NCBI GenBank assembly: GCA_965208665.1
Contig: CBDBPH010000002.1
Span: 1,163,040-1,227,039 of the forward strand
Origin: Dehalococcoidia bacterium
GTDB lineage: Bacteria; Chloroflexota; Dehalococcoidia; Bin125
Length of the DNA stretch: 64,000 bases
Direction: 5' to 3'
Shown: positions 30,032 to 64,000 of the stretch, piece by piece
Position numbering within the stretch: position 1 is the first letter of the stretch
Layout: the number at the start of each line of letters is the position of its first letter
Program-made: the position numbers and the translations under genes
Notes under the pieces: model-generated
The model's database searches: none
What the model was told of the DNA's origin: nothing
Seen by the model: the letters and a program-made list of their open reading frames with translations, nothing else

Positions 30032-30393
30032 TCGCGCAGCTCACCGTCATCATGACAGGCCCCGGGCTGCAACGTCATCTGCAGATACGGACGACTCGTC
30101 GACGGAGGGACCAGATGGTCCAGCCAGTGGACACGCTCCGATTCGGGAATCAGCGAGCCGATATCGCCGAATCGCAGGTGGATAACGGTGTCCCCCTCGA
30201 CGATGCCGAAGTCGATCACCGCCTTGCCCGGTTGCATCAGCCGGCCGACCGTGTCGGTGCGCAGGATCTTCGCGCCGCTGTCCGTGTAGCGGCGTAGGAC
30301 CAAAGGAGAGAAATGGACCGGCAGCGCAGATGCATCGCCCGAACTCACGGCTCGGGCGACGGTGCGCTTCCAGACCTGATCGACCTCGGCCAT
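30013..30393 (-). CDS. hypothetical protein (126 aa)
   Basis: ORF with an ATG start that shares 1 nt with the rhodanese stop. Its 3' end overlaps the MT-A70 start by 19 nt. No recognisable motif. Confidence 0.5.
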   Translation of the reverse strand: MAEVDQVWKRTVARAVSSGDASALPVHFSPLVLRRYTDSGAKILRTDTVGRLMQPGKAVIDFGIVEGDTVIHLRFGDIGSLIPESERVHWLDHLVPPSTSRPYLQMTLQPGACHDDGELREWVPEA

Positions 30394-31238: not shown

Positions 31239-31268
31239 GTTGCTGTCCTTTCTTCGGACCCTGGTGGC

Positions 31269-32228: not shown

Positions 32229-32506
32229 CAGGTTGCGCCGCCAGCGAGCGCCGGCAAGATCGCGAGCACATCGCCATCGGACAGCGACGTGTCCATGCCG
32301 TCAAGGAAGCGAATGTCCTCGTCGTTCAGGTAGATGTTGACGAAACGGCGCAGTTCGCCGTCTTCCATCAGTTGCTCGCCGATCCCCGGATATGAAGTCT
32401 CCAGCGTGGTTAGCAACTCGCCAATGTTGGCGGACTCGAGTCGCACTTTCTTCTCGCCGTCGGTGAACTTCTGCAGCATCGACGGGACCCGAACTTCTAC
32501 AGCCAT
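32228..32506 (-). CDS. cysO: ThiS/MoaD-family sulfur-carrier protein (CysO-like), C-terminus ...ALAGGAT
   Basis: 92 aa counted from the internal ATG (MAVEVRVPS; GAGAGG upstream). Beta-grasp-like pattern with VNIYLNDEDI and DGDVLAILPALAGG, followed by two extra residues. Confidence 0.8.
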   Translation of the reverse strand: MAVEVRVPSMLQKFTDGEKKVRLESANIGELLTTLETSYPGIGEQLMEDGELRRFVNIYLNDEDIRFLDGMDTSLSDGDVLAILPALAGGAT

Positions 32507-32549
32507 GCGGTGATACCTCTCGCTCATGAGCGGGGGAGATGAATGCAAC

Positions 32550-33668
32550 CTAGCCTCCGGCGGCGACTGCGGGACCCTCGTGGAACGGCGAGCCGCAGAA
32601 CTCTTCGTAGTCGATCAGTTTGGTCACCGTCGGCGCGTCCCCGCAGAGCGGGCAGCCCGGATCTCGACGAATCTTCACAGTGCGGAAGTCCATCGCCAGC
32701 GCGTCGTACAGCAGCAACCGATTCTTGAGCGGTTCCCCCTGCTCGAGCAGCACTTTGATCGCCTCAGTCGCCTGGATCGCGCCGACCGTCCCCGGCAGCA
32801 CACCGAGCACGCCGGCCTCGGAGCAGGACGGAACCATGCCCGGCGGCGGCGGCGATGGGTACAGGCAGCGGTAGCATCCCTCGCCCGGGAAAAACGTGGT
32901 GACTTGACCCTCGAACAGGAAGATCGAGCCGTCCACCAGGACCTTCTCCGCCAGGAACGCGGCGTCGTTGACCAGGTAGCGGGTGGCGAAGTTGTCCGCC
33001 CCGTTGATGATTACGTCGTACTCCGGGATGATCTCCATCGCGTTGTCCGAGGTCAGCGGCGAAGTGTGGGTGATCACGTTGACGTTCGGATTCATGTCAA
33101 GAATCCGGTCCTTGGCCGAGTCGACCTTCAGCCGTCCGATGTCGGACGTGCCGTGGATGATCTGGCGTTGCAGGTTGGACCGATCAACCACGTCGAAATC
33201 GACAATCCCGATCGTGCCGACCCCGGCCGCGGCCAGGTACACCAGCACGGGAGATCCCAGGCCGCCGGCGCCGACTGCGAGAATCTTGCCGTCGATCAGC
33301 TTGCGCTGACCAAGCGGGCCGACCTGGTCCATGATCAGGTGCCGCGAGTAGCGCTCAACCATCTCCGGCGTCATCACGGTTGGTGCTGGGCCGGCACCGC
33401 CCGCGATCGCGGGAATCACTGCCAGTTCGTCCCCGTCCGCGACCGGCGTTTCGGGCCCGTTCAACGATGTGATCTCGTGATTGTTCACGTAGACGTTGAC
33501 GTGTTCGAGCAGTTCCTGCTCGCCGTCGAAAACCATCTCGCCGAAGCCCGGGAAGCGCTGATCAAGGTCGCGCAGTACTCCGTTGACGTCGATGCCCTCG
33601 GCGTCGACAAAGGTGCGGTTCCCGGTGATCTTCCGAAACGGAGTCGGAATGTAGACCTTCACGCTCAT
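32550..33668 (-). CDS. fusion of an N-terminal ThiS/MoaD-like Ubl domain (ending AIAGG) to a MoeB/ThiF/MoeZ-type E1 adenylyltransferase
   Basis: Residues 1-91 are paralogous to CysO (VNVYVNNHEI, DGDELAVIPAIAGG). They are followed by an APAPT linker, RYSRHL, the nucleotide loop VGAGGLGSP, and zinc CxxC pairs (CYRC, CPLC). There is no C-terminal rhodanese domain. Confidence 0.85.
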   Translation of the reverse strand: MSVKVYIPTPFRKITGNRTFVDAEGIDVNGVLRDLDQRFPGFGEMVFDGEQELLEHVNVYVNNHEITSLNGPETPVADGDELAVIPAIAGGAGPAPTVMTPEMVERYSRHLIMDQVGPLGQRKLIDGKILAVGAGGLGSPVLVYLAAAGVGTIGIVDFDVVDRSNLQRQIIHGTSDIGRLKVDSAKDRILDMNPNVNVITHTSPLTSDNAMEIIPEYDVIINGADNFATRYLVNDAAFLAEKVLVDGSIFLFEGQVTTFFPGEGCYRCLYPSPPPPGMVPSCSEAGVLGVLPGTVGAIQATEAIKVLLEQGEPLKNRLLLYDALAMDFRTVKIRRDPGCPLCGDAPTVTKLIDYEEFCGSPFHEGPAVAAGG

Positions 33669-33690
33669 GACTCGTCCTCTCAGCTCGCTC

Positions 33691-34644
33691 TTAGCTGTCA
33701 GAGAGCGGCATCGACAGATACCGTTCGCCTGTGTCGCAGATCGTCGTCACGACCCGACAATCGGGACCGAGACGTTCGGCGACGATGTTCGCCGCGTACA
33801 CGTTCGCGCCCGATGAAACGCCGCACAAGATCCCCTCTTCGCGCGTCAACCGAAGCATCATCTGCTCGGCATCACGATCCGAGACGCCAATCACCTCGTC
33901 GTAGATCTCGCGGTTCAGGACGCCGGGCACGAACGATGCGCCGATGCCCTGAATGGCATGGACCGAGAACTTGCCGCCCTGCAGTACCGGCGACCGCTCC
34001 GGTTCCACCGCAGTCACCGCCAGGCTCGGCTGACGATCCCGCAGCACTTCGCCGACCCCGGTGATCGTGCCGCCGGTTCCTACGCCGGTCACGAACGCGT
34101 GCAGACGCTCGCCGTCTGGCATCTCGCGACCTTCCAGCGCAGACCAGATTTCCAGGGCCGTGGTCCGTCGGTGGATCTCCGGATTGGACAGATTCTGGAA
34201 TTGCTGCGGCATGAAGTAACCGTCATCCGAGGCCAACTCCTCCGCCGCATACACCGCCCCGGTCATCCCTTCGATCGCTGGCGTCAGCACCACCTCCGCG
34301 CCGAAACGCTCCAACAGTCGTCGCCGCTCGTGTGACATGTCCTCGGGCATGGTCAGAATCAGTCGATAGCCCTTGACCGCCGCAACCAATGCCAGCCCAA
34401 CGCCGGTGTTCCCCGATGTCGGTTCGACGATCACGTCACCCGGCCGCAACGCGCCGCTGCACTCTGCATCGTCGACCATCGACTTCGCGATCCGGTCCTT
34501 GACCGAACCGCCCGGATTGAGGGACTCCAGCTTCGCCACCACCTCGGCTCCGCCATCAGGCACGACCCGATGCAGTCGGACCATCGGTGTGGCGCCGATC
34601 AGTTCAAGCACGGAGTTTGCCAACTGCGGTCGAGTCAGGCTCAA
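33691..34644 (-). CDS. cysK: cysteine synthase A / O-acetylserine sulfhydrylase family PLP enzyme
   Basis: Has KLESLNPGGSVKDR, TSGNTG and GVGTGGTITG. Confidence 0.9.
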   Translation of the reverse strand: MSLTRPQLANSVLELIGATPMVRLHRVVPDGGAEVVAKLESLNPGGSVKDRIAKSMVDDAECSGALRPGDVIVEPTSGNTGVGLALVAAVKGYRLILTMPEDMSHERRRLLERFGAEVVLTPAIEGMTGAVYAAEELASDDGYFMPQQFQNLSNPEIHRRTTALEIWSALEGREMPDGERLHAFVTGVGTGGTITGVGEVLRDRQPSLAVTAVEPERSPVLQGGKFSVHAIQGIGASFVPGVLNREIYDEVIGVSDRDAEQMMLRLTREEGILCGVSSGANVYAANIVAERLGPDCRVVTTICDTGERYLSMPLSDS

Positions 34645-34670
34645 GGTGGATTCGTCTCGTAGGGATTGCG

Positions 34671-35132
34671 CTAGATCTGGTACCGTCCGCCGCTCGGCGC
34701 CCCCAGCTGGGCCGTTTCCGCTGCCAGGTCGGCGATCGTGCGGTCGGCCAGAGTGTTCAAAATGGCGGCACGCACGTCGTCCCAGAGGCGGACTTGCGCG
34801 GCCGCCCCGGTACAGCGCTCCGAGGCTCGCCCGTTCTGCGCGCCGCGTTCCAGGCAGGCCGCCAGCGTGAGCGGGCCTTCGAGCGCCTGAACGACACGAT
34901 CAAGTCGAATCTCCTCGGCCGGCAACGCCAGTTGGTGTCCCCCTTGGGATCCGCGCGCCGAGGAGATGAACCCCGCCGCGCGCAAGCGTCCCAGTACCTG
35001 ACCGGCCAGCGAGCCCGGAATGCCCTGTCGTTCCGCGATCTCCGCCGACGGAATCGGCGCGCCGTCATCGTGCTGCGCCAGATCGACCAGGGCGCGAATG
35101 CCATAATCGCTCGTGGAAGACAGCTTCATCAT
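34671..35132 (-). CDS. Rrf2 family transcriptional regulator (CymR/IscR-like)
   Basis: Has MMKLSSTSDYGIRALVDLA...IAERQGIP...L..L..AG.I.S.RG..GG. Start at ATG 35132/35129 (verified). The upstream part of the track ORF is Ser/Ala junk. Confidence 0.85.
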   Translation of the reverse strand: MMKLSSTSDYGIRALVDLAQHDDGAPIPSAEIAERQGIPGSLAGQVLGRLRAAGFISSARGSQGGHQLALPAEEIRLDRVVQALEGPLTLAACLERGAQNGRASERCTGAAAQVRLWDDVRAAILNTLADRTIADLAAETAQLGAPSGGRYQI

Positions 35133-35153
35133 CGGGAACACGATTCTCAGGTA

Positions 35154-35173
35154 CCGCATCTCAGACGATGCGG
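35154..35173. promoter_or_regulatory. inverted repeat CCGCATC-N6-GATGCGG in the rrf2/cysH divergent region (candidate operator)
   Basis: A perfect 7-bp inverted repeat 22 nt upstream of the rrf2 ATG, next to the only AT-rich patch (TTGACTGAAATAGTAACATTT) in this intergenic region. Confidence 0.3.
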
Positions 35174-35250
35174 ATAATCTTGACTGAAATAGTAACATTT
35201 CTCGTCGGCCAACCGAGCCGCCCGCCCGCCTCACCTCCCGGAGCCCGCGC

Positions 35251-36006
35251 ATGACCACCTCCAGCAGTGCAATCGACGCGACACAGATCGAGGCCGACTC
35301 CCAGCGACTGGCCGATTCACATCCGGCCGACATCGTCGCCGAGGCGCTCGCCCGCTTCGACAACATCACCATCTCATTCAGCGGGGCCGAAGATGTGGTG
35401 CTCGTCGACTTCGCCGCTCGCGAAGCACAGAGACTGGGCCGATCGTTCAACGTCTTCACGCTCGACACCGGCCGACTGCATCCCGAAACGCTCGAATTCA
35501 TCCAGCAGGTGCGCGAGCACTACGACGTGCCGATCGAGGCCTACTATCCCAACGCTGAGGCCGTCCAGGCGTTGGTCCGCGAGAAGGGTCTGTTCAGCTT
35601 CCGCACCGACGGGCACCAGGAGTGCTGCGGAATCCGCAAGGTCGAGCCGCTTGGACGCGCGCTGGCCCATGTCGACGCCTACATCACCGGACAGCGCAAG
35701 GACCAGTCGCCGGGCACGCGCGCCGAGATTCCGGTCGTCCAACTTGATCCCGGGTTCGGTCGAGAGGACGATCCTCTGGTCAAGTTCAATCCGCTGGCCA
35801 ACTGGTCGTCCACTCAGGTCTGGCAGCACATCATGGCCTATGGCGTGCCCTACAACCCGCTCCACGACCAGGGTTTCAAGTCGATCGGCTGCGCCCCGTG
35901 CACCCGAGCCACCCATCCCGGCGAGCACGAGCGAGCCGGCCGCTGGTGGTGGGAAGAGGCCACGCAAAAGGAGTGCGGCCTGCACTCGATCAATCTCGAG
36001 CAGTAG
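35251..36006 (+). CDS. cysH: adenylyl-sulfate (APS)/PAPS reductase, Fe-S type
   Basis: Has the ECCGIRKVEPL (Cys-Cys), CAPC and C-terminal ECGLH motifs. Confidence 0.9.
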   Translation: MTTSSSAIDATQIEADSQRLADSHPADIVAEALARFDNITISFSGAEDVVLVDFAAREAQRLGRSFNVFTLDTGRLHPETLEFIQQVREHYDVPIEAYYPNAEAVQALVREKGLFSFRTDGHQECCGIRKVEPLGRALAHVDAYITGQRKDQSPGTRAEIPVVQLDPGFGREDDPLVKFNPLANWSSTQVWQHIMAYGVPYNPLHDQGFKSIGCAPCTRATHPGEHERAGRWWWEEATQKECGLHSINLEQ

Positions 36007-39323: not shown

Positions 39324-40388
39324 TCAGCGTATCGGCGGCTGCTTCAATCCCGACCCCGTCAACGGCACCAGCACTCGCTCATCCTCGGCCAGCATCCCGC
39401 GCTCCAGCAGACGCCGCAGCGCCGCCAACGGCACCGCCGATGTCGGCTCCACGAACAGGCCGCGCTGCGAGATCGTTGTCCGCGCCAGCTCGATCTCCAA
39501 CTCCGACACGACGCCGGCGGCTCCACCCGTCTCCCGCACAGCCTCCAGCATCTGCGCCAGACGCGGCGGCTGCGCGACCGCGATGCCGTCGGCCATGGTT
39601 GGCTGCGGTTCGCGGGGCTCATGGTTGCGGAAGGCGGAAGCCAGTGGGCTGACATTCATCGCCTGGATCGCGTACAACCGCGGCATCCGTTCGATCCGAC
39701 CCAGTTGTACGAATTCCCGGAATCCACGATGCAGGCCGATCAGCAATGAACCATTGCCGACCGGCAACACGATCGCGTCGGGCAGCCCGTGCTCGGCGAT
39801 CTCCTCGGCGGCCGACTTCATGCCCTCGCAGAAATATGGACTCTGGTTGTGCGAGAGGTAGGGAATGCCCCGTTCCTGGGCATACTGCTCAGCGGCCGCG
39901 GCGACGGCCTCACGGTCACCGTCGACGGAGTGAATGTTGCCGCCGACGGCGATGATTTGCGCTTTCTTGGTCTCCGAAGCATCGGCTGGGACGAAAATCT
40001 CGGCCGACATCCGGGCCGCGGCGGCGTACGCGGCGAGCGCAGCGCCGGCATTGCCAGATGAGTCCTCGACGAATGCGGACGCGCCGCCGCTCCAGGCTGC
40101 CGAGACCAGCATCGCCGCCCCGCGATCCTTGAACGAACCCGTCGGCGAGAGGAACTCGAGCTTCAGCTCCAACCGCAGGCGCAGCGCGTCAGGCCAGTCG
40201 AAGCTGATTGTCGGCGTATCTCCTTGCCCCAGCGGCAACGGGGTGAGCGGCAGGCGGATGCCGCCCTCCGGCAGCCGCGGATAGTCGATCTCGTAGAGGC
40301 CGCCGCAACTCTCGCAGGAGAGCTCCAACGAGGCCGGCGCCAGGGAGACACAACCGAGACAACTCAGGTGGTGTCGCACGACGGGCAT
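39324..40388 (-). CDS. threonine synthase-family PLP enzyme (short form with N-terminal Cys4 ribbon)
   Basis: Has CLGC...CESCGG, then the LSPTGSFKDRGAA PLP-lysine block and SSGNAG. Confidence 0.8.
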   Translation of the reverse strand: MPVVRHHLSCLGCVSLAPASLELSCESCGGLYEIDYPRLPEGGIRLPLTPLPLGQGDTPTISFDWPDALRLRLELKLEFLSPTGSFKDRGAAMLVSAAWSGGASAFVEDSSGNAGAALAAYAAAARMSAEIFVPADASETKKAQIIAVGGNIHSVDGDREAVAAAAEQYAQERGIPYLSHNQSPYFCEGMKSAAEEIAEHGLPDAIVLPVGNGSLLIGLHRGFREFVQLGRIERMPRLYAIQAMNVSPLASAFRNHEPREPQPTMADGIAVAQPPRLAQMLEAVRETGGAAGVVSELEIELARTTISQRGLFVEPTSAVPLAALRRLLERGMLAEDERVLVPLTGSGLKQPPIR

Positions 40389-41578
40389 CAGGCGAAGAAC
40401 TCTCTGATGTCGTCGATCAGCAGGTCAGGCACCTCCATCGCCGGGAAGTGCCCGCCCTCGCGGAACTCCGTCCACTGGACCACGTTGAAGGCGCGCTCAC
40501 ACCACGACCTGGGCGGCAGCGGCGTGCCTCGCTTGAGCTTGACGAAGCCGGCAGGCACATCCGTGCGCGCTCCCTCACGCAATCGCACCTGACCGCCGAT
40601 TTCCGCCTCAACCTCCGCCGGCGGCCGCATCGCCTCGTGGTAGATCCGCATTGCCGACGACTGCGTCCGCGTGAACCAGTAAATCGCCACGGTCGCCAGC
40701 AGCTCGTCCTTCGAAAAGCGTCGATACAGGTCGCCGCCTCGCGGCTGCTCGTCTTCCCGCATGATGTCGGCCAGGATCCACCACTTGTCGACGATCCAGG
40801 CCAGCAGACCGACCGGCGAATCCTCAAGGTGAAACGCCATCGTCTGGAACTTGGTGCCATGAATGCCGCGATGCGCAGCGTCGTCGCGGACGTACGGTTC
40901 CTGCTCATCGACGAAGAACCGTTGCTCCACCTCACTCTGTGGAGCAGCCGCTGATCCGCCCGGAGCCAGCGCGGCCATCGTCATGTGGATGCGGGGGATC
41001 CGGTCGGCATGCCGTAGCGCGAGCTGTCCGCCGATGGCCGCGCCCCAATCCCCACCGTGGTACAGGAACTCGTCATAGCCCAGCCGCGACATCAGCTCGA
41101 CCCACATGTCGGCAATCGCCGCCGGACCCAACCCGCCCTGTCGCGGAATGTCCGACCAGCCGTAGCCGGGCAACGACGGCGCGATCACATGGAACGCAGG
41201 AGCGTTTGGATTCGCCGGTTCGGCCAACTCGTCGATGATCTTGTGGAAGTCGTAGACCGTCGAAGGCCAGCCATGCTGGATCATCAGCGGTCGCGCGTCG
41301 CGTCGCGGACTGCGCCGATGAATGAAGTGAATCCCCAGCGACTCGCCATTCCAGGCGGTCAGCGACGCCTTGAATTGGGGAAACCCGTTGAGCAGCGACT
41401 CAATCGAACGCCAGTCGAACTCGTCCGTCCAGTAGTCGACAAGATCTTGCGTGAAAGCAAGGTCGATGCCGTACAGCCAGTCAGATCCGGGAACCTCACT
41501 CAACCAGCGCGCGTCGCGCAGGCGCCGTCGAAGCTCGCTGATCTCGGACTCAGGGACGGCGATTTTGTACGGCTCCAC
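40388..41578 (-). CDS. epoxide hydrolase (EH N-terminal domain plus alpha/beta hydrolase), paralogue 1
   Basis: Has PYKIAVPESEISELRRRL..ARW and HGWPS, with HGGDWGA around the nucleophile. Start set to the GTG at 41578, 5 nt after GGGAGG. The upstream track extension covers the REP hairpins. Confidence 0.85.
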   Translation of the reverse strand: MEPYKIAVPESEISELRRRLRDARWLSEVPGSDWLYGIDLAFTQDLVDYWTDEFDWRSIESLLNGFPQFKASLTAWNGESLGIHFIHRRSPRRDARPLMIQHGWPSTVYDFHKIIDELAEPANPNAPAFHVIAPSLPGYGWSDIPRQGGLGPAAIADMWVELMSRLGYDEFLYHGGDWGAAIGGQLALRHADRIPRIHMTMAALAPGGSAAAPQSEVEQRFFVDEQEPYVRDDAAHRGIHGTKFQTMAFHLEDSPVGLLAWIVDKWWILADIMREDEQPRGGDLYRRFSKDELLATVAIYWFTRTQSSAMRIYHEAMRPPAEVEAEIGGQVRLREGARTDVPAGFVKLKRGTPLPPRSWCERAFNVVQWTEFREGGHFPAMEVPDLLIDDIREFFA

Positions 41579-41623
41579 CGTTGCCTCCCTCTGCCTATGA
41601 ACAATCGATGCCGCCGCGCACGC

Positions 41624-41683
41624 ACGGGCGACCACAAGGGTCGCCCGTACAGAGAGTTGTAGGGGCAGGCCTTGTCCCTGCCC
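41624..41683. repeat. two REP-like GC hairpins between epoxide hydrolase genes
   Basis: 41624-41648 is ACGGGCGACC-ACAAG-GGTCGCCCGT (10-bp stem). 41663-41683 is GGGCAGG-CCTTGTC-CCTGCCC (7-bp stem). Confidence 0.7.
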
Positions 41684-41718
41684 GCGCGCGATGCACAATT
41701 CCCCGCTTAACTCCCCGC

Positions 41719-42876
41719 TTAACGAAGAGGCCGGAAGAAGTCCCGAATGTCCTGCACCAACAGATCCGGCTCCTCCAGCGCGGCGAAGTGACCGCCCTTC
41801 TCATGCTCCGACCACTGGGTGATGTTGTAACCCGGCTCGCACCAGCTGCGCGGCGCAGTGATGATTTCCTTGGGGAAGATCGAGAAACCGGTCGGCGTCT
41901 CGAGTCGGCCCGGCAGGAAGTTCTCGGCCTGGTTCTGGCGCATCTCGTAGTAGTAGCGGGTCGACGAGTTGATCGTCTGGCCGAACCAGTAGATCGAGAT
42001 GTTGGTCAGGATCTCATCCTTGGTGAAGCGCTTCTCGATATCGCCGTCGCAGTCCGACCACGACCGCCACTTCTCCGTGATCCAGGCGGCCAGCCCGGCC
42101 GGCGAATCGGTCAGCCCGTATGCCAGCGTCTGCGGCTTGGTCCCCTGGATCGCCTGGTAACCCGTCTCCTGGGCCTGCCAGTGCGCCATCTGCGCCGCGA
42201 CCTCTCGTTCCCGGTCGGTCCATTCCTCTTGCGGCTTGTCCTGCGGCGGACGACCGATTGGCATGTTGATCTGCGCGCCGACGCAGTTGTCCGGGTGCTG
42301 GTAGGCGACCTGTGCGGTCACAATCGCGCCCCAGTCGCCGCCCTGCGCTCCGTACTGCTCGTAGCCGAGCTGCTCCATCAGCGCGCCCCAGAGCAGCGCG
42401 GTCCGCTTCTGACCGAAGCCGCCCGACGTCGGGATCTGCGAGAACCCATAGCCGGGGATCGACGGCGCGACCACGGTGAAGGCGTCGGCCGGGTCGCCAC
42501 CGTGCGACGCCGGATCGGTCAAGGGCCCGAGGATCTTGACCACCTCGTAGAACGTGCCCGGCCAACCGTGAGTGAACACCAACGGCAGCGGGTTCGGTCC
42601 GTTGCCTTCCTGGTGCACGTAGTGAACCGTGTAGTCCTCGACGCCGTCTGCAGACACCTGCGTCGTGAACTGCGGGATGCGATTGAGATACGTCTCCTGG
42701 ACGCGCCAGTCATAGCCGGTGCGCCAGTATTCACAGAGCTCCTGCATGTAAGCCAGGTTCGAGCCGTACTGCCAGCCGGAATCGCTCACTTCCGAGGGCC
42801 AACGGGTCTGCGCCAACCGGCGCTTGAGGTCGCGGATATCGGTGTCGGACACATCGATCTTGAATGGTTCGGGCAT
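41719..42876 (-). CDS. epoxide hydrolase, paralogue 2
   Basis: Has MPEPFKIDVSDTDIRDLKRRLAQTRWPSEV, HGWPG and GGDWGA. Collinear with 46601-47758. Confidence 0.9.
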   Translation of the reverse strand: MPEPFKIDVSDTDIRDLKRRLAQTRWPSEVSDSGWQYGSNLAYMQELCEYWRTGYDWRVQETYLNRIPQFTTQVSADGVEDYTVHYVHQEGNGPNPLPLVFTHGWPGTFYEVVKILGPLTDPASHGGDPADAFTVVAPSIPGYGFSQIPTSGGFGQKRTALLWGALMEQLGYEQYGAQGGDWGAIVTAQVAYQHPDNCVGAQINMPIGRPPQDKPQEEWTDREREVAAQMAHWQAQETGYQAIQGTKPQTLAYGLTDSPAGLAAWITEKWRSWSDCDGDIEKRFTKDEILTNISIYWFGQTINSSTRYYYEMRQNQAENFLPGRLETPTGFSIFPKEIITAPRSWCEPGYNITQWSEHEKGGHFAALEEPDLLVQDIRDFFRPLR

Positions 42877-42996
42877 GTTCGTAATCCTCTCGCCGAATGC
42901 GAGTCTGCGTACAAAATGATCCGCGCGCAGTATCGCACGAGCCCGACGGCACGCTCAGCTTGCCAGGCGAATCAACAAACGCCCCCCGCCAACTCC

Positions 42997-43141
42997 CCTT
43001 CCCTCCTGGAGAGAGCCTGCCCCTCGAAGGCGGGGGCTGGGGTGAGGCTCCGGTTGGGATGAGGGGACCGTAGGGCTCTGGCTCCCTCTCCCGCTGGGAG
43101 AGCGCCAGCCCCCGCGACGGCGGGGGCTGGGGGTGAGAGTC
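42997..43141. repeat. two copies of a REP/MITE-like double-hairpin element
   Basis: Copy 2 (about 43080-43141) has CTCTCCC-GCT-GGGAGAG followed by CCAGCCCCCGC-GACG-GCGGGGGCTGG (11-bp perfect stem). Copy 1 (about 42997-43050) is a degenerate version ending GGCGGGGGCTGGGGTGAGG. Confidence 0.7.
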
Positions 43142-43144
43142 CGT

Positions 43145-46100
43145 CTAGTCGTTGGGCCTGGCCGCGCGCGTATGCGACCACTCCGCCTCGCCAGCCTGGT
43201 TCATGGCCCAGCCGTTGGCGGTCTTGGCGCGGACTTGCACCTCGTAGCGCGTGCCCGCGGTGAGATCCTCGATCTCGTAACTCCTGGGATTCCAGCACAT
43301 GTTGTGGGAGCACATGCGGCGCGTCGATCGGGGGAAGAGCTCGTCGCTCGTGGTCCAGGCGGTGGTTCCCGACTCCCGGTGACGTACCTCGTAGGCGTAC
43401 GCCGGCGAGGCGCTGTCGGGCTCCTCCCACTCGACGATCAGCGACTCGCTCTCCCCGGGCGTCACCGTGACATGCACCGGGATGGCCGTGTCGGTCTGAT
43501 CGGCCGCCAGGGTGACGGTGACGATCTCCGAGGTGAAGCCCAGTATGGGCGTGTCGGTGGTCATCGGGTCGTCGTCGTCGCCGTCGGCGCGGCCCTGGAC
43601 GCGGACCTGCCAGGTGCCGTTTGTCAGCCCGGTAAAGGTATGCGAGCTGTCGGTCGCCGCCTTCTGGACACCGCTCGTCGGCCAGGCGGCCCAGGTCTTG
43701 TCCGCGTTCTGCTTGCGGTGCTCGACAAACCAGGCGTCAAGGCTGCCGACGATACCCGAAGTGCTGGCGCCATGCCAGGCGACCACCAGCTTGCCGTTCC
43801 CGCCGGACGCGGCCACCTGGGGCGCCCCCGGCCCGGCGGTATCGCCTTCATAGTCCGACGACTGCACCACCGCGCCATCAAGCGTGTACGACGCCCTGAT
43901 TGAGACCTCGCCTTCAGCTTCCGGGGAGACCAGGCTGCCGGGCGGGCAATTGATTTCACCGGATTCGCCGTCGTCTTCGTAATTGCAGACCGTGTTCTGG
44001 TCGATGTTCTTGTTGGTCTGGGCTTCGATCCACACGCGGCCAAGCAGACCCGACGGGCCGGTGCCGAACCAGATCTGGGTCGGCTCGAACCAGGTCCTGA
44101 CGGCCGGCGTCCAGACCGACCAGGCGGTGGTGGCGGTCGAGGCGGGTTGGCTGCTCAGGTGAGTTTTGGCGCCGACGCGCGCCGACCAGTAGAAGTCGCG
44201 AGTCAGGTTGGTGAGGCGGTGGAATGTCTCAGAAGCGTCTGGGGTCTCGGTACTCTTGAAGCCGGCGCATTCCGTCGCGACCCTGGCGTTGGGACATGGC
44301 TGGTACTCCACGACAAGATTGACCAACGTCCGTCCCGTCGGCGCAGTGTAGGCATTCCACAAGACGACCATGTTGCCGTGATTGTTGGCCAGCGTGCGCA
44401 CGCCCGTGGGGCTGTTCGCGTCGGCGGTCGCCGAGGGATCCTGGGCGTTGAGCGTGATGCTCTGGGTGCTGGTCGTGTACTCGCTGTCGGAGGCGTCGTA
44501 CGCGCGGATGCGGAAGTCGTAGCTGACGTAGGGCTCCAGCAGGTCGTAGGCGATGAAATCAGGCTGGCCGGCGTCGGACTGCGTGCTGATAAGCGACCAG
44601 GGGAATCGGCCGTAGCTGTACCAGTAGTCGTCCACGGAGCGTTTGAACTCGAAGCTGAACATCTGGCGAGTCACACAGCCGGTGCCGTTGACGCTGGTGA
44701 TCTTGCCGCTCACGGCGTTGAAGGCGTACGGCTTGACCGCCAGCGAAATGCAGGCGTCCGGCACGTTGTTCGCTTCCATCGTCACGAGGTCTTCGGATGC
44801 GCCGTCGGCGTACTCGACCCGGACGGCGAAGGTGTAATCGCCCGGTGTGAGGCCGCGCATGGTGTGCGAGCGGGCTTCGGGGTCGGGAATGGTGGCATCG
44901 AGGCTGAGGCCCGCCGCCTCGTTGGCGGCGCTGACGACGAAGCCGGTCACCTCGCAGGCGTCGGACATGTCGCTGGGCAGGGTCCAGGAGACGACCGCTC
45001 CCTGGCCGATGGTCAGGGCCGAGACGGAGGACGGCGCGACCGGGTCGCAGGCGTGCGCCTGTTGCCAGTCGACCTGGTGAGCGCTGTCATGCGTCAGGCC
45101 CTGGTGCACGAGCAAGGCGGCGCTGCCCGACCCGGCGGCCGCAATCGTCCCGCCGTTGAGCTTGAGGGTGTTGGCCAGCACGGCGACGCCGCCGGTGGAG
45201 AGGTTGGGTTCAACGACGGTGTGGGCGAAGGTCAGCGCATTGGAACCGGAGCCGGCCTGGTAGGCAGCCCACCTGGTTCCCCAGTCGGCCGGGTCCATGT
45301 CGATGGCGATCTGCGGCGTCCCACTGACCGTCACGGGTTCGCTGAACGCGACCGACACCTCGATCACGTCGCCTTTGGTATAGGTGTCGTCGTCGCCCGG
45401 GTCGGAGGTGATCGCGACGGCGAGCACGGTCGGCGCGGAGGCCTGCCAGTTGACCTTGTGGTTGGCGTCGTGGGCGAGTCCGGCGTGCGCGCGCTGCACA
45501 TCGGTGGTGGAGGAGACCGAGCGGATCGTGCCGCCGTTGAGCTTGAGGCTGTTGGCGAGCACGGCGACGCCCCTGGTCGAGATGTTGGGTGCGACAACGG
45601 TGTGGGCGAAGGTCAGCGCGGTGGAACCGCTGCCGGCGGAGTACCAGGCGCGCTTGACGCCGTAGCTGGGGTCCATCTTAATGTCCACCCTCGGCGTCCC
45701 GCTGACGTTGACCGCCTCGCTGAAGGTCAGCGTCACCTGGATCGCGTCGCCCTTGCGATAATTGTCGTCGTCGCCCGGATCGGAGGTGATGGCGACGCCG
45801 GTCACGGTGGGGGCGGTTGCCTGCCAGTTGACCCTGTGATTGGGGTCATGGGGGAGTCCGGCGTGTGAGAGCGCGGCGGCCGCTCCGGCGGAGGCAGAGG
45901 TGATCGAGCCGCCGTTGAGCGTCAACGAATCGGCGAGCACGGCGACGCCCTGGGTGGAGATGTTGGGTTCGACGACCTGGTGCGCGAAGGTCAGCTGGGT
46001 CGATCCGCTGCCGCTCGAGTAGGCGGCCGGCTTGGTTCCCCAGTCGGCCGGATCCATGTCGATCGAGACTTGCGGCGTGCCGGAGACGTTGACGGCTTCG

Positions 46101-46324
46101 CTGAAGGTGAGGGTGACGCGGACGTGGTGTCCAAGGGCATAGGTCTGGTCGGGTCCGGCTTTGGAGCTGATGGCGACTGAGGTGACGGTCGGCGCGGTCT
46201 GACCTTGCACGGCCGAACTGCCGACCAGTAGGGCGAGGAAGACGAGTAAGACGAAGCCCGTGTGCGCGAGGGCCGTCCGGCCCGCGAGCCCATACGCTCG
46301 ATAAAGCTTGAGATCAACGCGCAC
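43145..46324 (-). CDS. large secreted/cell-surface protein: signal anchor, 3 tandem ~127-aa Ig-like repeats, then several FN3-like beta-sandwich modules
   Basis: 1059-aa ORF. N-terminal hydrophobic signal FVLLVFLALLVGSSAVQG. Three repeats starting APTV(T/L). The C-terminal segments show FN3-like W...Y.V.V.A patterns (for example YEVRHRE...TRYEVQVRA). Confidence 0.8.
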   Translation of the reverse strand: MRVDLKLYRAYGLAGRTALAHTGFVLLVFLALLVGSSAVQGQTAPTVTSVAISSKAGPDQTYALGHHVRVTLTFSEAVNVSGTPQVSIDMDPADWGTKPAAYSSGSGSTQLTFAHQVVEPNISTQGVAVLADSLTLNGGSITSASAGAAAALSHAGLPHDPNHRVNWQATAPTVTGVAITSDPGDDDNYRKGDAIQVTLTFSEAVNVSGTPRVDIKMDPSYGVKRAWYSAGSGSTALTFAHTVVAPNISTRGVAVLANSLKLNGGTIRSVSSTTDVQRAHAGLAHDANHKVNWQASAPTVLAVAITSDPGDDDTYTKGDVIEVSVAFSEPVTVSGTPQIAIDMDPADWGTRWAAYQAGSGSNALTFAHTVVEPNLSTGGVAVLANTLKLNGGTIAAAGSGSAALLVHQGLTHDSAHQVDWQQAHACDPVAPSSVSALTIGQGAVVSWTLPSDMSDACEVTGFVVSAANEAAGLSLDATIPDPEARSHTMRGLTPGDYTFAVRVEYADGASEDLVTMEANNVPDACISLAVKPYAFNAVSGKITSVNGTGCVTRQMFSFEFKRSVDDYWYSYGRFPWSLISTQSDAGQPDFIAYDLLEPYVSYDFRIRAYDASDSEYTTSTQSITLNAQDPSATADANSPTGVRTLANNHGNMVVLWNAYTAPTGRTLVNLVVEYQPCPNARVATECAGFKSTETPDASETFHRLTNLTRDFYWSARVGAKTHLSSQPASTATTAWSVWTPAVRTWFEPTQIWFGTGPSGLLGRVWIEAQTNKNIDQNTVCNYEDDGESGEINCPPGSLVSPEAEGEVSIRASYTLDGAVVQSSDYEGDTAGPGAPQVAASGGNGKLVVAWHGASTSGIVGSLDAWFVEHRKQNADKTWAAWPTSGVQKAATDSSHTFTGLTNGTWQVRVQGRADGDDDDPMTTDTPILGFTSEIVTVTLAADQTDTAIPVHVTVTPGESESLIVEWEEPDSASPAYAYEVRHRESGTTAWTTSDELFPRSTRRMCSHNMCWNPRSYEIEDLTAGTRYEVQVRAKTANGWAMNQAGEAEWSHTRAARPND
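45056..46195 (-). repeat. three in-frame tandem coding repeats (~381 bp each) inside the 1059-aa gene
   Basis: Residues 44-170, 171-296 and 297-423 align end to end (TFSE.V.VSGTP, SGSGS..LTFAH.VV.PN.ST.GVAVLA, LNGG.I, H.V.WQ). Confidence 0.85.
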
Positions 46325-46600
46325 GTGTACCTCGTCTCCCCGCGGATCGGATGTTCATGACCCAGGACTGTATCGAATGATCTGGATTGTTTCCTCACTA
46401 TTGGAACACCGTTAACGACAATTTTGTGAAGTTGTGTGTCATTTGGATTTCCTTGAGTTCACATCGACACGCCGGACACGCATACGTCAGCGAAGCGACG
46501 GCGAAGAACCGCAGCACGTCTTCACGCAGCCCCGAGCCGGATATCGGATGCCGAAGAGGGAGACGATGAGGAAAGACGAATCGCCAGCGGCGCAGGGAGA

Positions 46601-47758
46601 TTAGCGCAACGGTCGGAAAAACTCGCGGATGTCCCCGACCAGCAGCTCCGGCTCCTCCATCGCGGCGAAGTGTCCACCGCGATCATGCACCGACCACTGC
46701 TGCACGTTGTACTCCGCCTCGACCCAGTGCCGCGGCGGCCCGAAGATTTCCTTTGGGAAGACCGAGAATCCGGCCGGCGTCTCCAGCCGACCCGGCAGAG
46801 AGTTCGCCTGATCGTGCTGTCGGCGTTCGTAGTAGTAGCGCGTGGCCGAGTTCATCGTCCTGGTAAACCAGTAAATCGAGATGTTGGTCAGGATCTCGTC
46901 CTTGCTGAATCGCGTCTCAATGTCGCCGTCGCAGTCCGACCACGACCGCCACTTCTCCACAACCCAGGCCGCCAAACCCGCCGGAGAATCCGTCAATCCA
47001 TACGACAACGTCTGCGGCCGAGTCCCCTGGATCCACTGGTAGGCCGCCTCCTGCGACAGCCACTCCCGCATCCGAGCGACAAACGCACGCTCCTCGTCGC
47101 TCCACGCCTCCTCGGGATGGTCCGCCGGCGCCGGACTGTTCGGCATGTTGATCTGCGCGCCAATGCAATGCTCCGAGTCTTCATACGCGGTCAGCGCCGA
47201 GACCCGCGCGCCAATGTCGCCGCCCTGCGCTCCATAACGCTCAAAGCCAAGCTCCGACATCAACGCCACCCACATCCGAGCCGCCCGCATATGCCCGAAC
47301 CCGCCACTGCTGGGTATCTCCGAAAAGCCGTATCCGGGCAGCGACGGAGCGACAACCGTAAACGCATCAGCCGGATCGCCACCATGCGCACCGGGATCGG
47401 TGAGCGGCCCCAGGATCTTCGAAACCTCAACGAACGATCCCGGCCAGCCATGAGTGAAGACGAGCGGCAGCGGATCCGGCCCAACGCCCTCCTGCAGCAC
47501 GAAATGAACGCTGTAATCCTCGACCCCGTCCGCCGACACCTGCGTCGTGAACTGAGGCATCCGGTTCAGTCGAGCCTGCTGGGCCGCCCAGTCAAACTCC
47601 GTCCGCCAGTACTCGCAAAGCTCCTGGATGTAACCCAGGTTCGACCCGTACTGCCAACCTGAGTCCGCCACCTCCGACGGCCACCGAGTCTGCGCCAGCC
47701 GACGCCTCAGGTCCCTGACCTCTGCGTCCGGAATGTCAATCGTGTACGGCTCAGGCAT
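46601..47758 (-). CDS. epoxide hydrolase, paralogue 3
   Basis: Has MPEPYTIDIPDAEVRDLRRRLAQTRWPSEV, HGWPG and GGDIGA. Same length (385 aa) as paralogue 2. Confidence 0.9.
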   Translation of the reverse strand: MPEPYTIDIPDAEVRDLRRRLAQTRWPSEVADSGWQYGSNLGYIQELCEYWRTEFDWAAQQARLNRMPQFTTQVSADGVEDYSVHFVLQEGVGPDPLPLVFTHGWPGSFVEVSKILGPLTDPGAHGGDPADAFTVVAPSLPGYGFSEIPSSGGFGHMRAARMWVALMSELGFERYGAQGGDIGARVSALTAYEDSEHCIGAQINMPNSPAPADHPEEAWSDEERAFVARMREWLSQEAAYQWIQGTRPQTLSYGLTDSPAGLAAWVVEKWRSWSDCDGDIETRFSKDEILTNISIYWFTRTMNSATRYYYERRQHDQANSLPGRLETPAGFSVFPKEIFGPPRHWVEAEYNVQQWSVHDRGGHFAAMEEPELLVGDIREFFRPLR

Positions 47759-47809: not shown

Positions 47810-48052
47810 CTAGCTCTCGACCACGTCTCCGGCGACCGGGTCGATGCGCACGCCCTTGGCCTCGACCCAGGCGAGCGCGCGGTCGATCTCATCGTGGTCG
47901 CCATCGAGCTCCAAAACCACCCAGCCGAAGTCATGCTCGACATCGGCCATCCGGATATTGGTCACCACGTCAAACTCATGCCCGACGAGATAGATCACCG
48001 GTTCCTTGACCGCGTCGCCCTCGAACGTGAAGCGGACTCGTCGGGTCGCCAT
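47810..48052 (-). CDS. NIL-domain (ferredoxin-fold) small protein
   Basis: 80 aa. Has VRFTFEGDAVKEPVIY.....F.V..NI..A........G..VLEL.G......AL......GV, as in the NIL domain of MetN-type proteins. Lies 2 nt downstream of the thrC-like gene. Confidence 0.7.
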   Translation of the reverse strand: MATRRVRFTFEGDAVKEPVIYLVGHEFDVVTNIRMADVEHDFGWVVLELDGDHDEIDRALAWVEAKGVRIDPVAGDVVES

Positions 48053-48054
48053 CG

Positions 48055-49305
48055 CTAACCTCCCACGCCAACGGCCTGCGGTGCCTCGGCAAAGGCGTCC
48101 TCGAACGATTGCAGCGTACCTTCGACCGGAATCGGCTGCGTCACGTGCTCAACGACCGCGTCCGCCGTCTTCAGCCCGCCGCCGGTGATGAACGCCACCG
48201 TCGTCTCGTCCGGGTCCACCTGCCCGGTCTCGATCGCCTGGCGCAACCCGGCGATCGTCACCCCGCCGGCAGTCTCGGCGAAGACGCCTTCGCACTCGGC
48301 CAGCATTCGAATCCCTTCGACGACCTCCGGATCCGTCACCGCCGTCGAGCCGCCGTCAGTGCGCTTCATCGTCTTCAGCGCGTAGTAGCCGTCGGCCGGA
48401 TTGCCGATCGCCAGCGACTTGGCAATCGTGTTCGGCTTGACCGGTCGGATGTTGGTCGTCTCGTTGCGCCACGCCGTCGTAATCGGCGAGCAGCCCTCGG
48501 CCTGCGCCCCGATCATCCGCACCGGCGTCTCCTCGATCAGTCCATACTGCTGGAACTCCTGGAACCCCTTATGGATCTTTGTGAACAGCGACCCCGACGC
48601 CATCGGCGCAATCACCTGCCGCGGTGCGCGCCAGCCAAGCTGCTCCGCCACCTCATACGCCAGCGTGCGCGAACCTTCGGCGTAGTACGGACGCACATTA
48701 ATGTTGACGAACGCCCACTGTCGGTTGTCGGCCAGCTCCGAGCAGAGCCGGTTCACATCGTCATAGGAGCCATTGACCGACACGATCGTCGGGTTGTAGA
48801 CAGCCGATCCCAGCACCTTCCCCGCTTCCAGATCGTGCGGGATGAAGACAATCGCCTCCATCCCCGCTCTGGCCGCATGGGCCGAGACCGAGTTGGCCAG
48901 GTTGCCGGTCGAGGCACAGGCCAGTGTCTTGAAGCCCATCTGCTTGGCACGCGAAGAGGCCACCGCCACCACGCGGTCCTTGAACGACCAGGACGGATTA
49001 CAGGTGTCGTTCTTGATCCATAGCTCCCGCATACCAAGCCGGTCGGCGAGTCGATCTGCCTTGAGCAGCGGAGTCCAGCCGACGTTCAGGTCGACGATGA
49101 AGTCCTCGTCCACCGGCAACAGGTCGATGTAGCGCCAGATTGAGCGCGGTCCAGACTCGATTCGCTCTCGCGAGATCTTCGACTGAATCCCGTCGTGGTC
49201 GTAGGCGACCTCCAGCGGCCCGAAGCAGAAGTCACAGACGTGGAGAGCTTCGAGCGGGAACTCGCGGTCACACTCACGACAGTCGAGGCAGGTGGCATAT
49301 GTCAT
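48055..49305 (-). CDS. threonine synthase-family PLP enzyme (long form with N-terminal Cys-rich ribbon)
   Basis: Has CLDCRECD...CDFCFG, then the NPSWSFKDR PLP-lysine block and STGNLA. Confidence 0.85.
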   Translation of the reverse strand: MTYATCLDCRECDREFPLEALHVCDFCFGPLEVAYDHDGIQSKISRERIESGPRSIWRYIDLLPVDEDFIVDLNVGWTPLLKADRLADRLGMRELWIKNDTCNPSWSFKDRVVAVASSRAKQMGFKTLACASTGNLANSVSAHAARAGMEAIVFIPHDLEAGKVLGSAVYNPTIVSVNGSYDDVNRLCSELADNRQWAFVNINVRPYYAEGSRTLAYEVAEQLGWRAPRQVIAPMASGSLFTKIHKGFQEFQQYGLIEETPVRMIGAQAEGCSPITTAWRNETTNIRPVKPNTIAKSLAIGNPADGYYALKTMKRTDGGSTAVTDPEVVEGIRMLAECEGVFAETAGGVTIAGLRQAIETGQVDPDETTVAFITGGGLKTADAVVEHVTQPIPVEGTLQSFEDAFAEAPQAVGVGG

Positions 49306-49491
49306 GGTCGGTTGGGGCTTTCGCTAGCAGGGGACAGGCGGCGGAGCGGGAACGTGTCGGTCCTTACCCGCCGCGCCTGTTCCAGGAGGCGCTAGCGAGG
49401 CAGGACCACGGGCATCGCCATGCGGCCCAGCATCATCACGTCAGCAGTCACACGCGTCGTCATCAACGAAATCCTACAACAGGCCGACCGC

Positions 49492-54504: not shown

Positions 54505-54578
54505 TGGGGATTGGTCTAGTGGTAGGACGGCTGACTCTGGATCAGTTAGCGGGGGTTCGAATCCTCCATCCCCAGCCA
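54505..54578 (+). tRNA. tRNA-Gln (anticodon CUG)
   Basis: Folded by hand: acceptor TGGGGAT/ATCCCCA, D-arm GTCT-AGTGGTA-GGAC, anticodon arm GCTGA-CTCTGGA-TCAGT, T-arm GGGGG-TTCGAAT-CCTCC, and an encoded CCA. Confidence 0.9.
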
Positions 54579-54599
54579 ACCAACATCGTCCAACTGCGT

Positions 54600-54676
54600 G
54601 GGGCATTCGTCTAGCGGCCAAGGACACCGCCCTCTCAAGGCGGAGATCAGGGGTTCGAATCCCCTATGCCCTACCA
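54600..54676 (+). tRNA. tRNA-Glu (anticodon CUC)
   Basis: Folded by hand: acceptor GGGGCAT/ATGCCCT (G1-U72), D-arm GTCT...GGAC, anticodon arm CCGCC-CTCTCAA-GGCGG, T-arm AGGGG-TTCGAAT-CCCCT, and an encoded CCA. Confidence 0.9.
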
Positions 54677-61446: not shown

Positions 61447-61547
61447 GCTTGTCGGCGACCTGGCTGACCACCGCTTTCGGGCGGATCACAGTTGCGGGAC
61501 AGCGCCGGATTCGCACCGGCTTCGCGACTTTACAGCAGCCAACAGGC
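61447..61547 (-). promoter_or_regulatory. probable compact cobalamin riboswitch aptamer upstream of cobN
   Basis: The minus-strand RNA reads GCCTGTTGGC...AAAGTCGCGAAGCCGGTGCGAATCCGGCGCTGTCCCGCAACTGTGA...CCGCCCGAAAGCGG...TCAGCCAGGTCGCCGACAAGC. It matches the core GGTG..AATCC....C.G..CCCGC.ACTGT, has a B12-box-like GCCAGG..GCC, and a 10-bp P1 with one mismatch. Downstream, CCCTC-GACG-GAGGG can sequester the Shine-Dalgarno. Confidence 0.5.
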
Positions 61548-61640
61548 TACTACGGACTGCCATTCGTTCATCGCGCACAATGCACGAATCGCGGCCAACC
61601 AGGTGGAGGCGGGCCTCGCCTTCGCCTTGACAGGCCGAGG

Positions 61641-63734: not shown

Positions 63735-63925
63735 GCGGAGAGTTGTCACCTCTCGTCCAGGCAGGTCTCCTGGCTTGCGGGAGGAGGTCCTGGCCGAGCC
63801 CTTCCCATCGACGCGTGGGCGGTCGACAGTAGGCGTCAGCTCTCCATTCTGCTCACTCGAGTGAGCCCCGCTTACAGTGGCGCTACCGCGTCGGAATCTC
63901 ACCGACTTCCCTATTCTCCCAGGAC
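63735..63925 (-). promoter_or_regulatory. cobalamin (B12) riboswitch, long class
   Basis: The minus-strand RNA contains AATAGGGAAGTCGGTGAGATTCCGACGCGGTAGCGCCACTGTAAGCGGGG and, downstream, the B12 box AAGCCAGGAGACCTGCC (63760-63776). It lies directly 5' of the SBP gene. Confidence 0.85.
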
Positions 63926-64000
63926 GGGCACCTGGACGAATGCTGCTGCGAATGAGCCTAACACCGGCCCTTGCCGCGTGACCCTATTGCTGACTCTTGG

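Follow-up and report, generated by a model that had tools for sequence, protein, structure and literature searches.

Is a homologue of threonine synthase (ThrC) that is encoded directly before a NIL-domain protein a true threonine synthase, or does it belong to the methionine branch? The question is raised by a gene pair in a 64 000 nt stretch of the genome of a Dehalococcoidia bacterium (contig CBDBPH010000002.1, positions 1,163,040 to 1,227,039; hereafter, the window). Our computational analysis indicates that the ThrC homologue, a protein of 416 amino acids (aa), is probably a MetM-type homocysteine synthase with a tightly coupled NIL subunit and control by a leader that contains methionine (Met) codons. 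MetM of Streptomyces albulus is reported to be a ThrC homologue, often misannotated, that is encoded behind an S-adenosylmethionine (SAM) riboswitch and uses thiocarboxylated MetO (PMC13759103; 10.1101/2024.10.14.618325; PMC12172450); MetO is described as a carrier of sulfur that functions in thiocarboxylate form together with Mec and MoeZ (GapMind 2026, PMC13759103; preprint 10.1101/2024.10.14.618325). The two genes of the pair in the window are as follows.

48055-49305, minus strand: MetM-like pyridoxal 5'-phosphate (PLP) enzyme of the ThrC family, 416 aa; proposed O-phosphohomoserine-dependent homocysteine synthase
47810-48052, minus strand: NIL protein of 80 aa that stands alone, its gene translationally coupled to that of the enzyme; putative accessory or regulatory subunit

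The enzyme gene, its NIL partner and the housekeeping threonine synthase

A first-pass annotation, made from the letters of the window, had described a 416 aa ThrC-family enzyme with a Cys-rich ribbon, followed by an 80 aa NIL protein, and the open reading frames (ORFs) and domains that we found agree with that description. In profile searches, the enzyme scored 239 bits against the PALP family (PF00291) and 284.8 bits against the thrC model TIGR00260 (cut-off 167.1). It fell just short of the cut-off of the equivalog model PRK08197 (295.2 bits, cut-off 303), and the cysteate synthase model TIGR03844 was not matched (69.5 bits, cut-off 324.9). The N-terminal four-Cys zinc ribbon (CxxC...CxxC; C9, C12, C24 and C27) and the PLP lysine K109, which is positioned in an SFKDR motif, are invariant across 34 aligned homologues. 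By sequence, it belongs to the fold-type II PLP enzymes, within the threonine-synthase family. Its partner matched the NIL family (PF09383, 62.1 bits, cut-off 24) and carries the sole NIL domain detected in the genome, which is 2.85 Mb in size and of the Dehalococcoidia type of Chloroflexota.

The TAG stop codon of the enzyme gene and the ATG start codon of the NIL gene are 2 nt apart, and the Shine–Dalgarno sequence of the NIL gene (GGAGG) lies within the final codons of the enzyme gene. The NIL gene was found directly downstream of the enzyme gene in all 80 related Chloroflexota loci (62–98 % identity), with junctions that overlap or measure a few nucleotides. Because the adjacency holds in 80 of 80 loci, the pairing is not a matter of chance, and the co-occurrence of NIL with this ThrC clade, which the first-pass annotation had named as a test of its proposal, is borne out. 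The tail of the enzyme, ...VGVGG (48059-48064, minus strand), was considered as a built-in sulfur carrier and rejected, as the ending varies in relatives (GVA, GKN, GQS and others); the Gly-Gly tail arises because the Shine–Dalgarno sequence of the NIL gene encodes those codons.

Three ThrC-like genes are present in the genome: those of the 416 aa protein and of a 354 aa paralogue in the window, and one on contig C1 that adjoins the homoserine dehydrogenase gene hom. Against four solved bacterial ThrCs, the hom-linked protein scored 390–424 bits, compared with 181–198 bits for the 416 aa enzyme and 130–145 bits for the 354 aa paralogue. The three proteins were placed in a tree of 81 sequences, a quick maximum-likelihood tree with a short search and a midpoint root, in which the function of many rows is unknown. 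A branch with 100 % support in the Shimodaira–Hasegawa-like approximate likelihood ratio test (SH-aLRT) splits this tree into a group of 56 rows, containing the 416 aa enzyme and every homologue with methionine-type context, that of Nonomuraea included, and a group of 25 rows, containing the hom-linked ThrC and the 354 aa paralogue. On this sequence evidence, the housekeeping ThrC is the hom-linked paralogue on C1, not the 416 aa enzyme. The separation of the two in the tree favours the initial proposal of a methionine-branch enzyme as opposed to the true threonine synthase. The same proposal had pointed to a second ThrC paralogue in the window; the paralogue exists, but it is not the true ThrC either, which is encoded beside hom on contig C1.

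39324-40388, minus strand: third paralogue of the ThrC family (354 aa), which has a CxxC...CxxC zinc ribbon of its own; not part of the system

In the tree, the 354 aa protein falls on the ThrC side at the end of a very long branch, and its scores reached none of the NCBIfam threonine-synthase cut-offs. Two epoxide-hydrolase genes immediately precede its gene, and ResB follows. The region between the two ThrC-like genes (40388-47758, minus strand) encodes three epoxide-hydrolase paralogues, two of which flank a 1059 aa FN3-containing protein. The immediate neighbours of the enzyme–NIL pair are an epoxide hydrolase and a Uma2 nuclease.

Methionine-type context in relatives and in the genome

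The strongest context signals came from 33 more distant Chloroflexota loci (62–67 % identity), which were compared with a close clade of 48 loci at at least 75 % identity. A SAM-I riboswitch (RF00162; 68–77 bits, gathering score 44.4) was detected 180–310 nt upstream of the orthologue in 11 of the 16 loci scanned with Rfam, and nhmmer detected it in 29 of 32 more distant loci (one further locus was truncated). Directly after the NIL gene, 32 of the 33 more distant loci encode a 91 aa ThiS-family protein that ends in ...DEVSIVPAVAGG. No SAM riboswitch was found upstream of the enzyme gene in the window or in the 48 close-clade loci, and an adjacent carrier gene is absent from the window and from 48/48 close-clade loci. 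Riboswitch and linked carrier are both lost from the operon of the close clade, which has kept the NIL gene and the Met-codon leader.

Beyond these loci, representatives of other clusters formed at 50 % identity adjoin ThiS alone, ThiS together with a ThiF-rhodanese, or ThiS together with NIL. A homologue in Nonomuraea gerenzanensis (52 % identity) has a SAM-I riboswitch upstream (68.7 bits), a ThiS-family Gly-Gly protein downstream and no NIL gene. This layout of riboswitch, enzyme and carrier matches the one reported for Streptomyces MetM/MetO in PMC12172450 and PMC13759103. At one further locus (L102:4432-4758), the ThiS-type carrier beside the MetM-like gene has a 17-residue tail past its Gly-Gly, and would need a JAMM peptidase for maturation.

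The genome itself encodes hom, thrB (218 bits) and a full-length metH. Neither MetA nor MetX was found in it, nor was HcyBio, the DUF39 protein that together with a NIL/ferredoxin protein makes homocysteine from aspartate semialdehyde in Methanosarcina, Desulfovibrio and Dehalococcoides (PMC5764234; a protein-thiocarboxylate methionine pathway is also cited in that paper). The search for a Cys_Met_Meta_PP enzyme in the genome yielded nothing real, the best hit being a 30-bit partial match. That no canonical MetA/MetX or MetB/C/Y genes were found, a point which the first-pass annotation had proposed to check, is in line with its suggestion. Cystathionine-gamma-synthase-like chemistry was also considered for the enzyme and is unlikely, as the genome has no Cys_Met_Meta_PP lyase to complete such a route.

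The distribution of these genes was surveyed in 121 sampled genomes of the class, in which a MetM-like orthologue was counted at at least 51 % identity; the results are given as counts alone, since related genomes are non-independent. Approximately 92 of the genomes carry a MetM-like gene, and in about 80 of these, judged from coordinates, NIL is located beside it. HcyBio is present in 24 of the 121 genomes, 19 of which are amongst the ~28 without a MetM-like gene; a Cys_Met_Meta_PP enzyme is encoded in another five of those ~28, and the remainder are incomplete assemblies. In the window's own family (four genomes), neither HcyBio nor Cys_Met_Meta_PP was found. When the enzyme was used as query in a word-indexed search, the hits were confined to close relatives from Chloroflexota, all of them named 'threonine synthase'. 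The closest relatives are metagenome-assembled genomes (MAGs), and the isolate names of several (IRC, RHO and SB) suggest, by names alone, that these derive from sponge metagenomes.

Two further arrangements were seen in the survey. The MetM-like gene directly adjoins a Cys_Met_Meta_PP gene (about 510–535 bits) in several genomes (G118:C9, G009:C1, G071:C121, G077:C108, G043:C7, G052:C58 and G024:C2), an adjacency that may link homocysteine synthesis to transsulfuration. Families f4 (g5) and f5 (g6) have a MetM-like gene at 58–61 % identity together with a Cys_Met_Meta_PP enzyme, and no NIL domain was found genome-wide in either.

A carrier of the MetO type is present in the genome as an orphan gene (G000 C2:173666-173938), approximately 1 Mb from the pair. 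Its product ends in DEVSIVPAVAGG and shares 59 % mean identity with the 32 operon-linked carriers and 56 % with the Nonomuraea carrier. Genes that could serve such a carrier are found in the window.

32550-33668, minus strand: ThiS-like domain fused to a MoeB/MoeZ-type E1 adenylyltransferase (PF02597 and PF00899; internal AGG-AGP junction); candidate activator of carriers, including the MetO-like one
32228-32506, minus strand: CysO-like ThiS/MoaD carrier with a GG-AT end
31269-32228, minus strand: CysM-like cysteine synthase of the carrier-dependent cysteine cluster (TIGR01136, 352.6 bits); context only
30393-31238, minus strand: two-domain rhodanese; candidate sulfur donor to E1
28884-29390, minus strand: JAMM/MPN+ peptidase (Mec-like); candidate maturase of carriers

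These genes form part of a cysteine cluster of the CysO/CysM/Mec type (28884-35501, minus strand), which comprises Rrf2, CysK, the ThiS-E1 fusion, the GG-AT carrier, the CysM-like enzyme, the rhodanese, a 126 aa unknown protein, an MT-A70 methylase, the JAMM peptidase and FolP. The first-pass annotation had called the neighbourhood of the pair rich in sulfur-transfer genes, which is correct at a distance (28.9–35.5 kb, 13–19 kb away) and incorrect for the immediate neighbours.

We infer the substrate and the sulfur donor from this gene content and from the comparison with MetM. The substrate would be O-phospho-L-homoserine, made via the hom and thrB products of the genome. The enzyme would exchange the phosphate for sulfur to give homocysteine, which MetH would then methylate to methionine. 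Sulfur would most likely be delivered as the C-terminal thiocarboxylate of a ThiS-type Gly-Gly carrier, for which the orphan MetO-like protein is the best candidate; it may be charged by the E1 enzyme and the rhodanese and matured by the JAMM peptidase, all of which are encoded 13–19 kb from the pair in the window.

The NIL protein, the Met-codon leader and the weighing of alternatives

A structural model of the NIL protein (predicted local distance difference test score, pLDDT, 85.5) shows a beta-alpha-beta-beta-alpha-beta ferredoxin-like fold. The best structural matches were the C2 domains of the methionine importer ATPase MetN (template modelling score, TM, 0.80–0.85; root-mean-square deviation, rmsd, 1.2–1.7 Å), followed by ACT domains. 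Residue N32 of the NIL protein, kept in 26 of 28 orthologues, aligns with MetN N295, a residue that contacts L-methionine and whose replacement (N295A) abolishes binding (PMC6233128). The NIL protein has no match to PF02597, and its C-terminus is ES, EG, EP or DR in orthologues, never Gly-Gly.

The predicted complex of enzyme and NIL protein reached a median score of 0.56, compared with 0.01 for the best control, a result that amounts to weak support. Of 80 solved complexes, 58 attained the mark applied in this prediction, as did 2 of 110 mismatched pairs; just 7 of the 80 solved complexes, and both passing mismatches, reached it at a score of 0.60 or less. The three runs share at least 87 % of contacts, and the pLDDT of the partner was at least 82. 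A search for longer NIL forms returned two chains that join PALP and NIL (P0278 and P0279), each from a single contig, which are probably frameshift or read-through calls across the 2 nt junction and not real fusions; no fusion of NIL to a carrier was found amongst close relatives in that search. In genomes of the class without a MetM-like gene, such as at L111:1044-2734 (G055), HcyBio adjoins a 136 aa protein that consists of NIL and two [4Fe-4S] units.

What might the NIL protein do? We infer its ligand and action from the likeness to MetN C2, and tentatively favour a sensor of a small ligand, methionine or a close relative, that may feed back on the enzyme as MetN C2 does on its importer. 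Even in the clade of the window, whose operon no longer includes the carrier gene, the NIL gene stays beside the enzyme gene. The NIL protein is dispensable for the chemistry, because it is missing from the actinomycete operon and from the steps listed by GapMind. By analogy with the NIL/ferredoxin partner of HcyBio, NIL could instead take part in sulfur delivery, for example by docking on the enzyme either the carrier in its thiocarboxylated form or a donor of persulfide or sulfide. NIL domains do accompany both non-canonical homocysteine routes in the class, as a stand-alone protein with the MetM-like enzyme and with two [4Fe-4S] units with HcyBio, and NIL sits between enzyme and carrier in most operons. 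However, the stand-alone protein has no Cys-rich or Fe-S part, the homologues of Nonomuraea and of locus L107 have a carrier and no NIL, the GapMind steps are MetM, MetO, Mec and MoeZ only, and the sole biochemically defined function of a NIL domain is ligand sensing in MetN (PMC6233128). Delivery is thus an unlikely role, and we prefer a regulatory subunit over a sulfur-delivery adaptor.

That NIL is itself the sulfur carrier, equivalent to MetO, is hardly credible. The first-pass annotation had, with reserve, linked the combination of a ThrC homologue and a NIL protein to MetM/MetO, an identification that is not supported, since MetO is described as a sulfur carrier, a separate ThiS Gly-Gly protein fills that role in orthologous operons, and the NIL fold resembles MetN C2. 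The position of the NIL gene right after the enzyme gene, with no adjacent carrier gene in this clade, would suit a carrier; the C-terminus without Gly-Gly, the predicted fold, which is not a beta-grasp, the ThiS-family carrier in the same operon of 32/33 more distant loci and its orthologue elsewhere in this genome all speak against it.

The leader upstream of the enzyme gene contains a conserved mini-ORF and two predicted hairpins.

49392-49463, minus strand: leader mini-ORF of 23 codons, five of them Met, with a G-R-M-x-M core
49403-49428, minus strand: hairpin A, in which GGGCC pairs with GGUCC and encloses both conserved AUG codons
49356-49409, minus strand: hairpin B, long and GC-rich, which includes the stop codon of the leader and is incompatible with hairpin A

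The core GGGCC-NN-AUG-NNN-AUG was found upstream of the enzyme gene in both clades, at 72 loci in its strict form and at ~6 in a looser form, of ~79 that could be judged. The motif is unique to the enzyme gene in the genome: in a search for a wider leader regulon, two other GGGCC-NN-ATG-NNN-ATG matches were found and dismissed as looking like chance, one being ORF-free and probably rRNA, and the other lying inside an ORF. Riboswitch-clade mini-ORFs carry good Shine–Dalgarno sequences, and in one subgroup of that clade the mini-ORF is located after a riboswitch terminator with a U-tract, which suggests two stacked regulators. No credible match to a known RNA family was found in the leader (the best was a snoRNA model, E=0.14).

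Hairpin A was predicted in essentially all sequences of both clades, with GGGCC pairing with GGYCC or GCCC 16 nt downstream, and its 3' arm (GGYCC) is the 5' arm of hairpin B. Across loci, the leader stop codon is located within hairpin B or immediately before it. When each sequence was folded singly, the arms of hairpin B varied by subclade and stayed complementary (GGUCC/GGACC, GGCCC/GGGCC, GGCUC/GAGCC and GGCCUG/CAGGCC). The spacer before the enzyme start is C-rich, with 28 C to 13 G in 60 nt, and C exceeds G in 64 of 73 loci, a hint of Rho-type attenuation. From these features we propose that the leader is an RNA switch coupled to translation and responsive to the supply of methionine, in which the two mutually exclusive hairpins would govern expression, perhaps through Rho-type termination or masking of the start region. 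The switch would stand alone in this clade, and behind the SAM-I riboswitch in more distant relatives.

Several observations weigh against the reading of the locus as a MetM-type homocysteine synthase with a coupled NIL subunit and a Met-codon leader. The enzyme clears TIGR00260, the generic thrC model of NCBI. A cyanobacterial homologue that is 51.6 % identical to MetM acted in vitro mainly as a threonine synthase/deaminase, and methionine was not raised (PMC12172450); context does not guarantee the activity. The window itself has neither the SAM riboswitch nor the adjacent carrier, both of which are known from relatives, and orthology to the characterized MetM is drawn from shared context and from the Nonomuraea homologue as a stand-in, not from S. 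albulus MetM (UniProt A0A059WBP2). The genome is 95.7 % complete, and 8000 bases were withheld. In the sampled genomes of the class, a MetM-like gene and a Cys_Met_Meta_PP enzyme coexist in 34 cases, and the complementary pattern is not strict. The score of the enzyme–NIL complex is only a weak pass, and the conserved Asn is the NIL family's own motif; because it is also retained in the NIL/ferredoxin partner of HcyBio, N32 fits methionine sensing without being specific evidence for it. In the leader, alignment-based pair counts, with MAFFT misplacing the 3' arms, settled neither hairpin B nor a long-range helix (leader stop/pre-ribosome-binding-site GCUAGCG), and no U-tract terminator was found after either hairpin or the downstream GC helix.

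The TIGR00260 score and the synthase/deaminase activities of the cyanobacterial homologue (PMC12172450) would both fit a second, differently regulated threonine synthase, or synthase/deaminase, with NIL as an amino-acid sensor unrelated to methionine synthesis. We regard this as very improbable, given that orthologous loci are under SAM-I riboswitch control, that homologues are linked to ThiS carriers and MoeZ, that a conventional hom-linked ThrC is already present, and that the genome is otherwise without a detectable route to the homocysteine required by MetH. A different possibility is compatible with our explanation save for the sulfur donor, namely that the close-clade enzyme uses free sulfide directly and needs no carrier. 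Such an enzyme would account for the loss of carrier gene and riboswitch from the operon, with no carrier adjacent in the window or in any of the 48 close-clade loci, and MetM converted O-phosphohomoserine to homocysteine in Na2S assays (PMC12172450). The genome nevertheless keeps the orphan carrier, with the same DEVSIVPAVAGG end and 59 % mean identity to the operon-linked carriers, and the E1, rhodanese and JAMM genes are present; direct use of sulfide is accordingly doubtful, and a carrier-fed MetM-type homocysteine synthase is the reading that we retain.

Elsewhere in the window, a large chelatase-type gene cluster has two cobalamin riboswitches nearby (61452-61572 and 63743-63950, minus strand), and gltX is followed by two tRNA genes (54505-54673, plus strand).

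Significance and comparison with known systems

We take the locus to be a variant of the MetM/MetO system of 2024 to which a NIL partner and a Met leader have been added. No description of a NIL partner or a Met leader of MetM was found in the literature searched, which did not include the primary paper of Hasebe et al. 2024. As annotation pipelines label the protein threonine synthase, this genome and ~58 of the 121 class genomes would look like methionine auxotrophs when their pathways are reconstructed in the standard way. Recognition of MetM removes a false methionine gap for a large, mostly uncultured group, which probably includes MAGs from sponge metagenomes. The NIL protein, conserved throughout Chloroflexota and kept even without a linked carrier or riboswitch, suggests that the pathway has a further, undescribed layer, most likely feedback at the post-translational level. 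The Met-codon leader may represent an uncommon type of attenuator and could show how methionine and SAM are sensed separately. More speculatively, and with less likelihood than the sensor role as such, NIL could be a dedicated sensor of methionine (or homocysteine or SAM) that throttles the MetM-type enzyme, a portable feedback module shared by the importer, MetM and HcyBio, with the G-R-M-x-M mini-ORF a methionine-sensing switch kept as the sole cis-regulator after riboswitch loss.

The closest known system is MetM/MetO of Streptomyces albulus. The two systems share a ThrC-like PLP enzyme often annotated as threonine synthase, and orthologous loci with a SAM riboswitch and a ThiS Gly-Gly carrier; E1 and JAMM genes are present in this genome, and the enzyme is 52 % identical to an actinomycete homologue with the same layout. 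Unlike MetM/MetO, the locus has NIL inserted directly after the enzyme gene, a protein absent from the published pathway steps. The carrier gene is unlinked (~1 Mb away), the clade has no SAM riboswitch, a Met-codon leader is present, and the E1 enzyme has a fused ThiS domain in place of a fused rhodanese.

The NIL protein resembles the MetN C2 domain of the Escherichia coli MetNI importer (PDB 3DHW, 3DHX, 3TUZ and 6CVL; PMC6233128) in family, in fold and in the equivalence of N32 and N295. It differs in being a stand-alone protein of 80 aa and not the C-terminal domain of an ABC ATPase, its putative partner is a PLP enzyme, and identity is 21–24 %. The HcyBio route offers a parallel within the same bacterial class, as there too the gene of a NIL-domain protein adjoins that of a non-canonical enzyme that forms homocysteine; its catalytic protein is unrelated, however, its NIL is fused to two 4Fe-4S clusters, and homoserine is no intermediate.

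Protein-thiocarboxylate routes combine a fold-type II PLP enzyme, an O-phospho amino acid and the thiocarboxylate of a carrier, as in the cysteine synthesis of Mycobacterium tuberculosis by CysO, CysM, Mec and MoeZ. The window contains such a cluster (28.9–35.5 kb), whose E1 and JAMM genes could be shared with the system described here; the latter differs in having a ThrC-like enzyme and not one of the CysM subfamily, in the proposed product, homocysteine instead of cysteine, and in its NIL partner. The leader, finally, recalls the leader-peptide attenuators of the trp, his, thr and leu operons of enteric bacteria and of tnaC. Like these, it has a short ORF with codons for the end product that overlaps mutually exclusive hairpins upstream of a biosynthetic gene. 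Unlike these, its regulatory Met codons double as start codons, it has no U-tract terminator, and in relatives it is stacked behind a SAM riboswitch.

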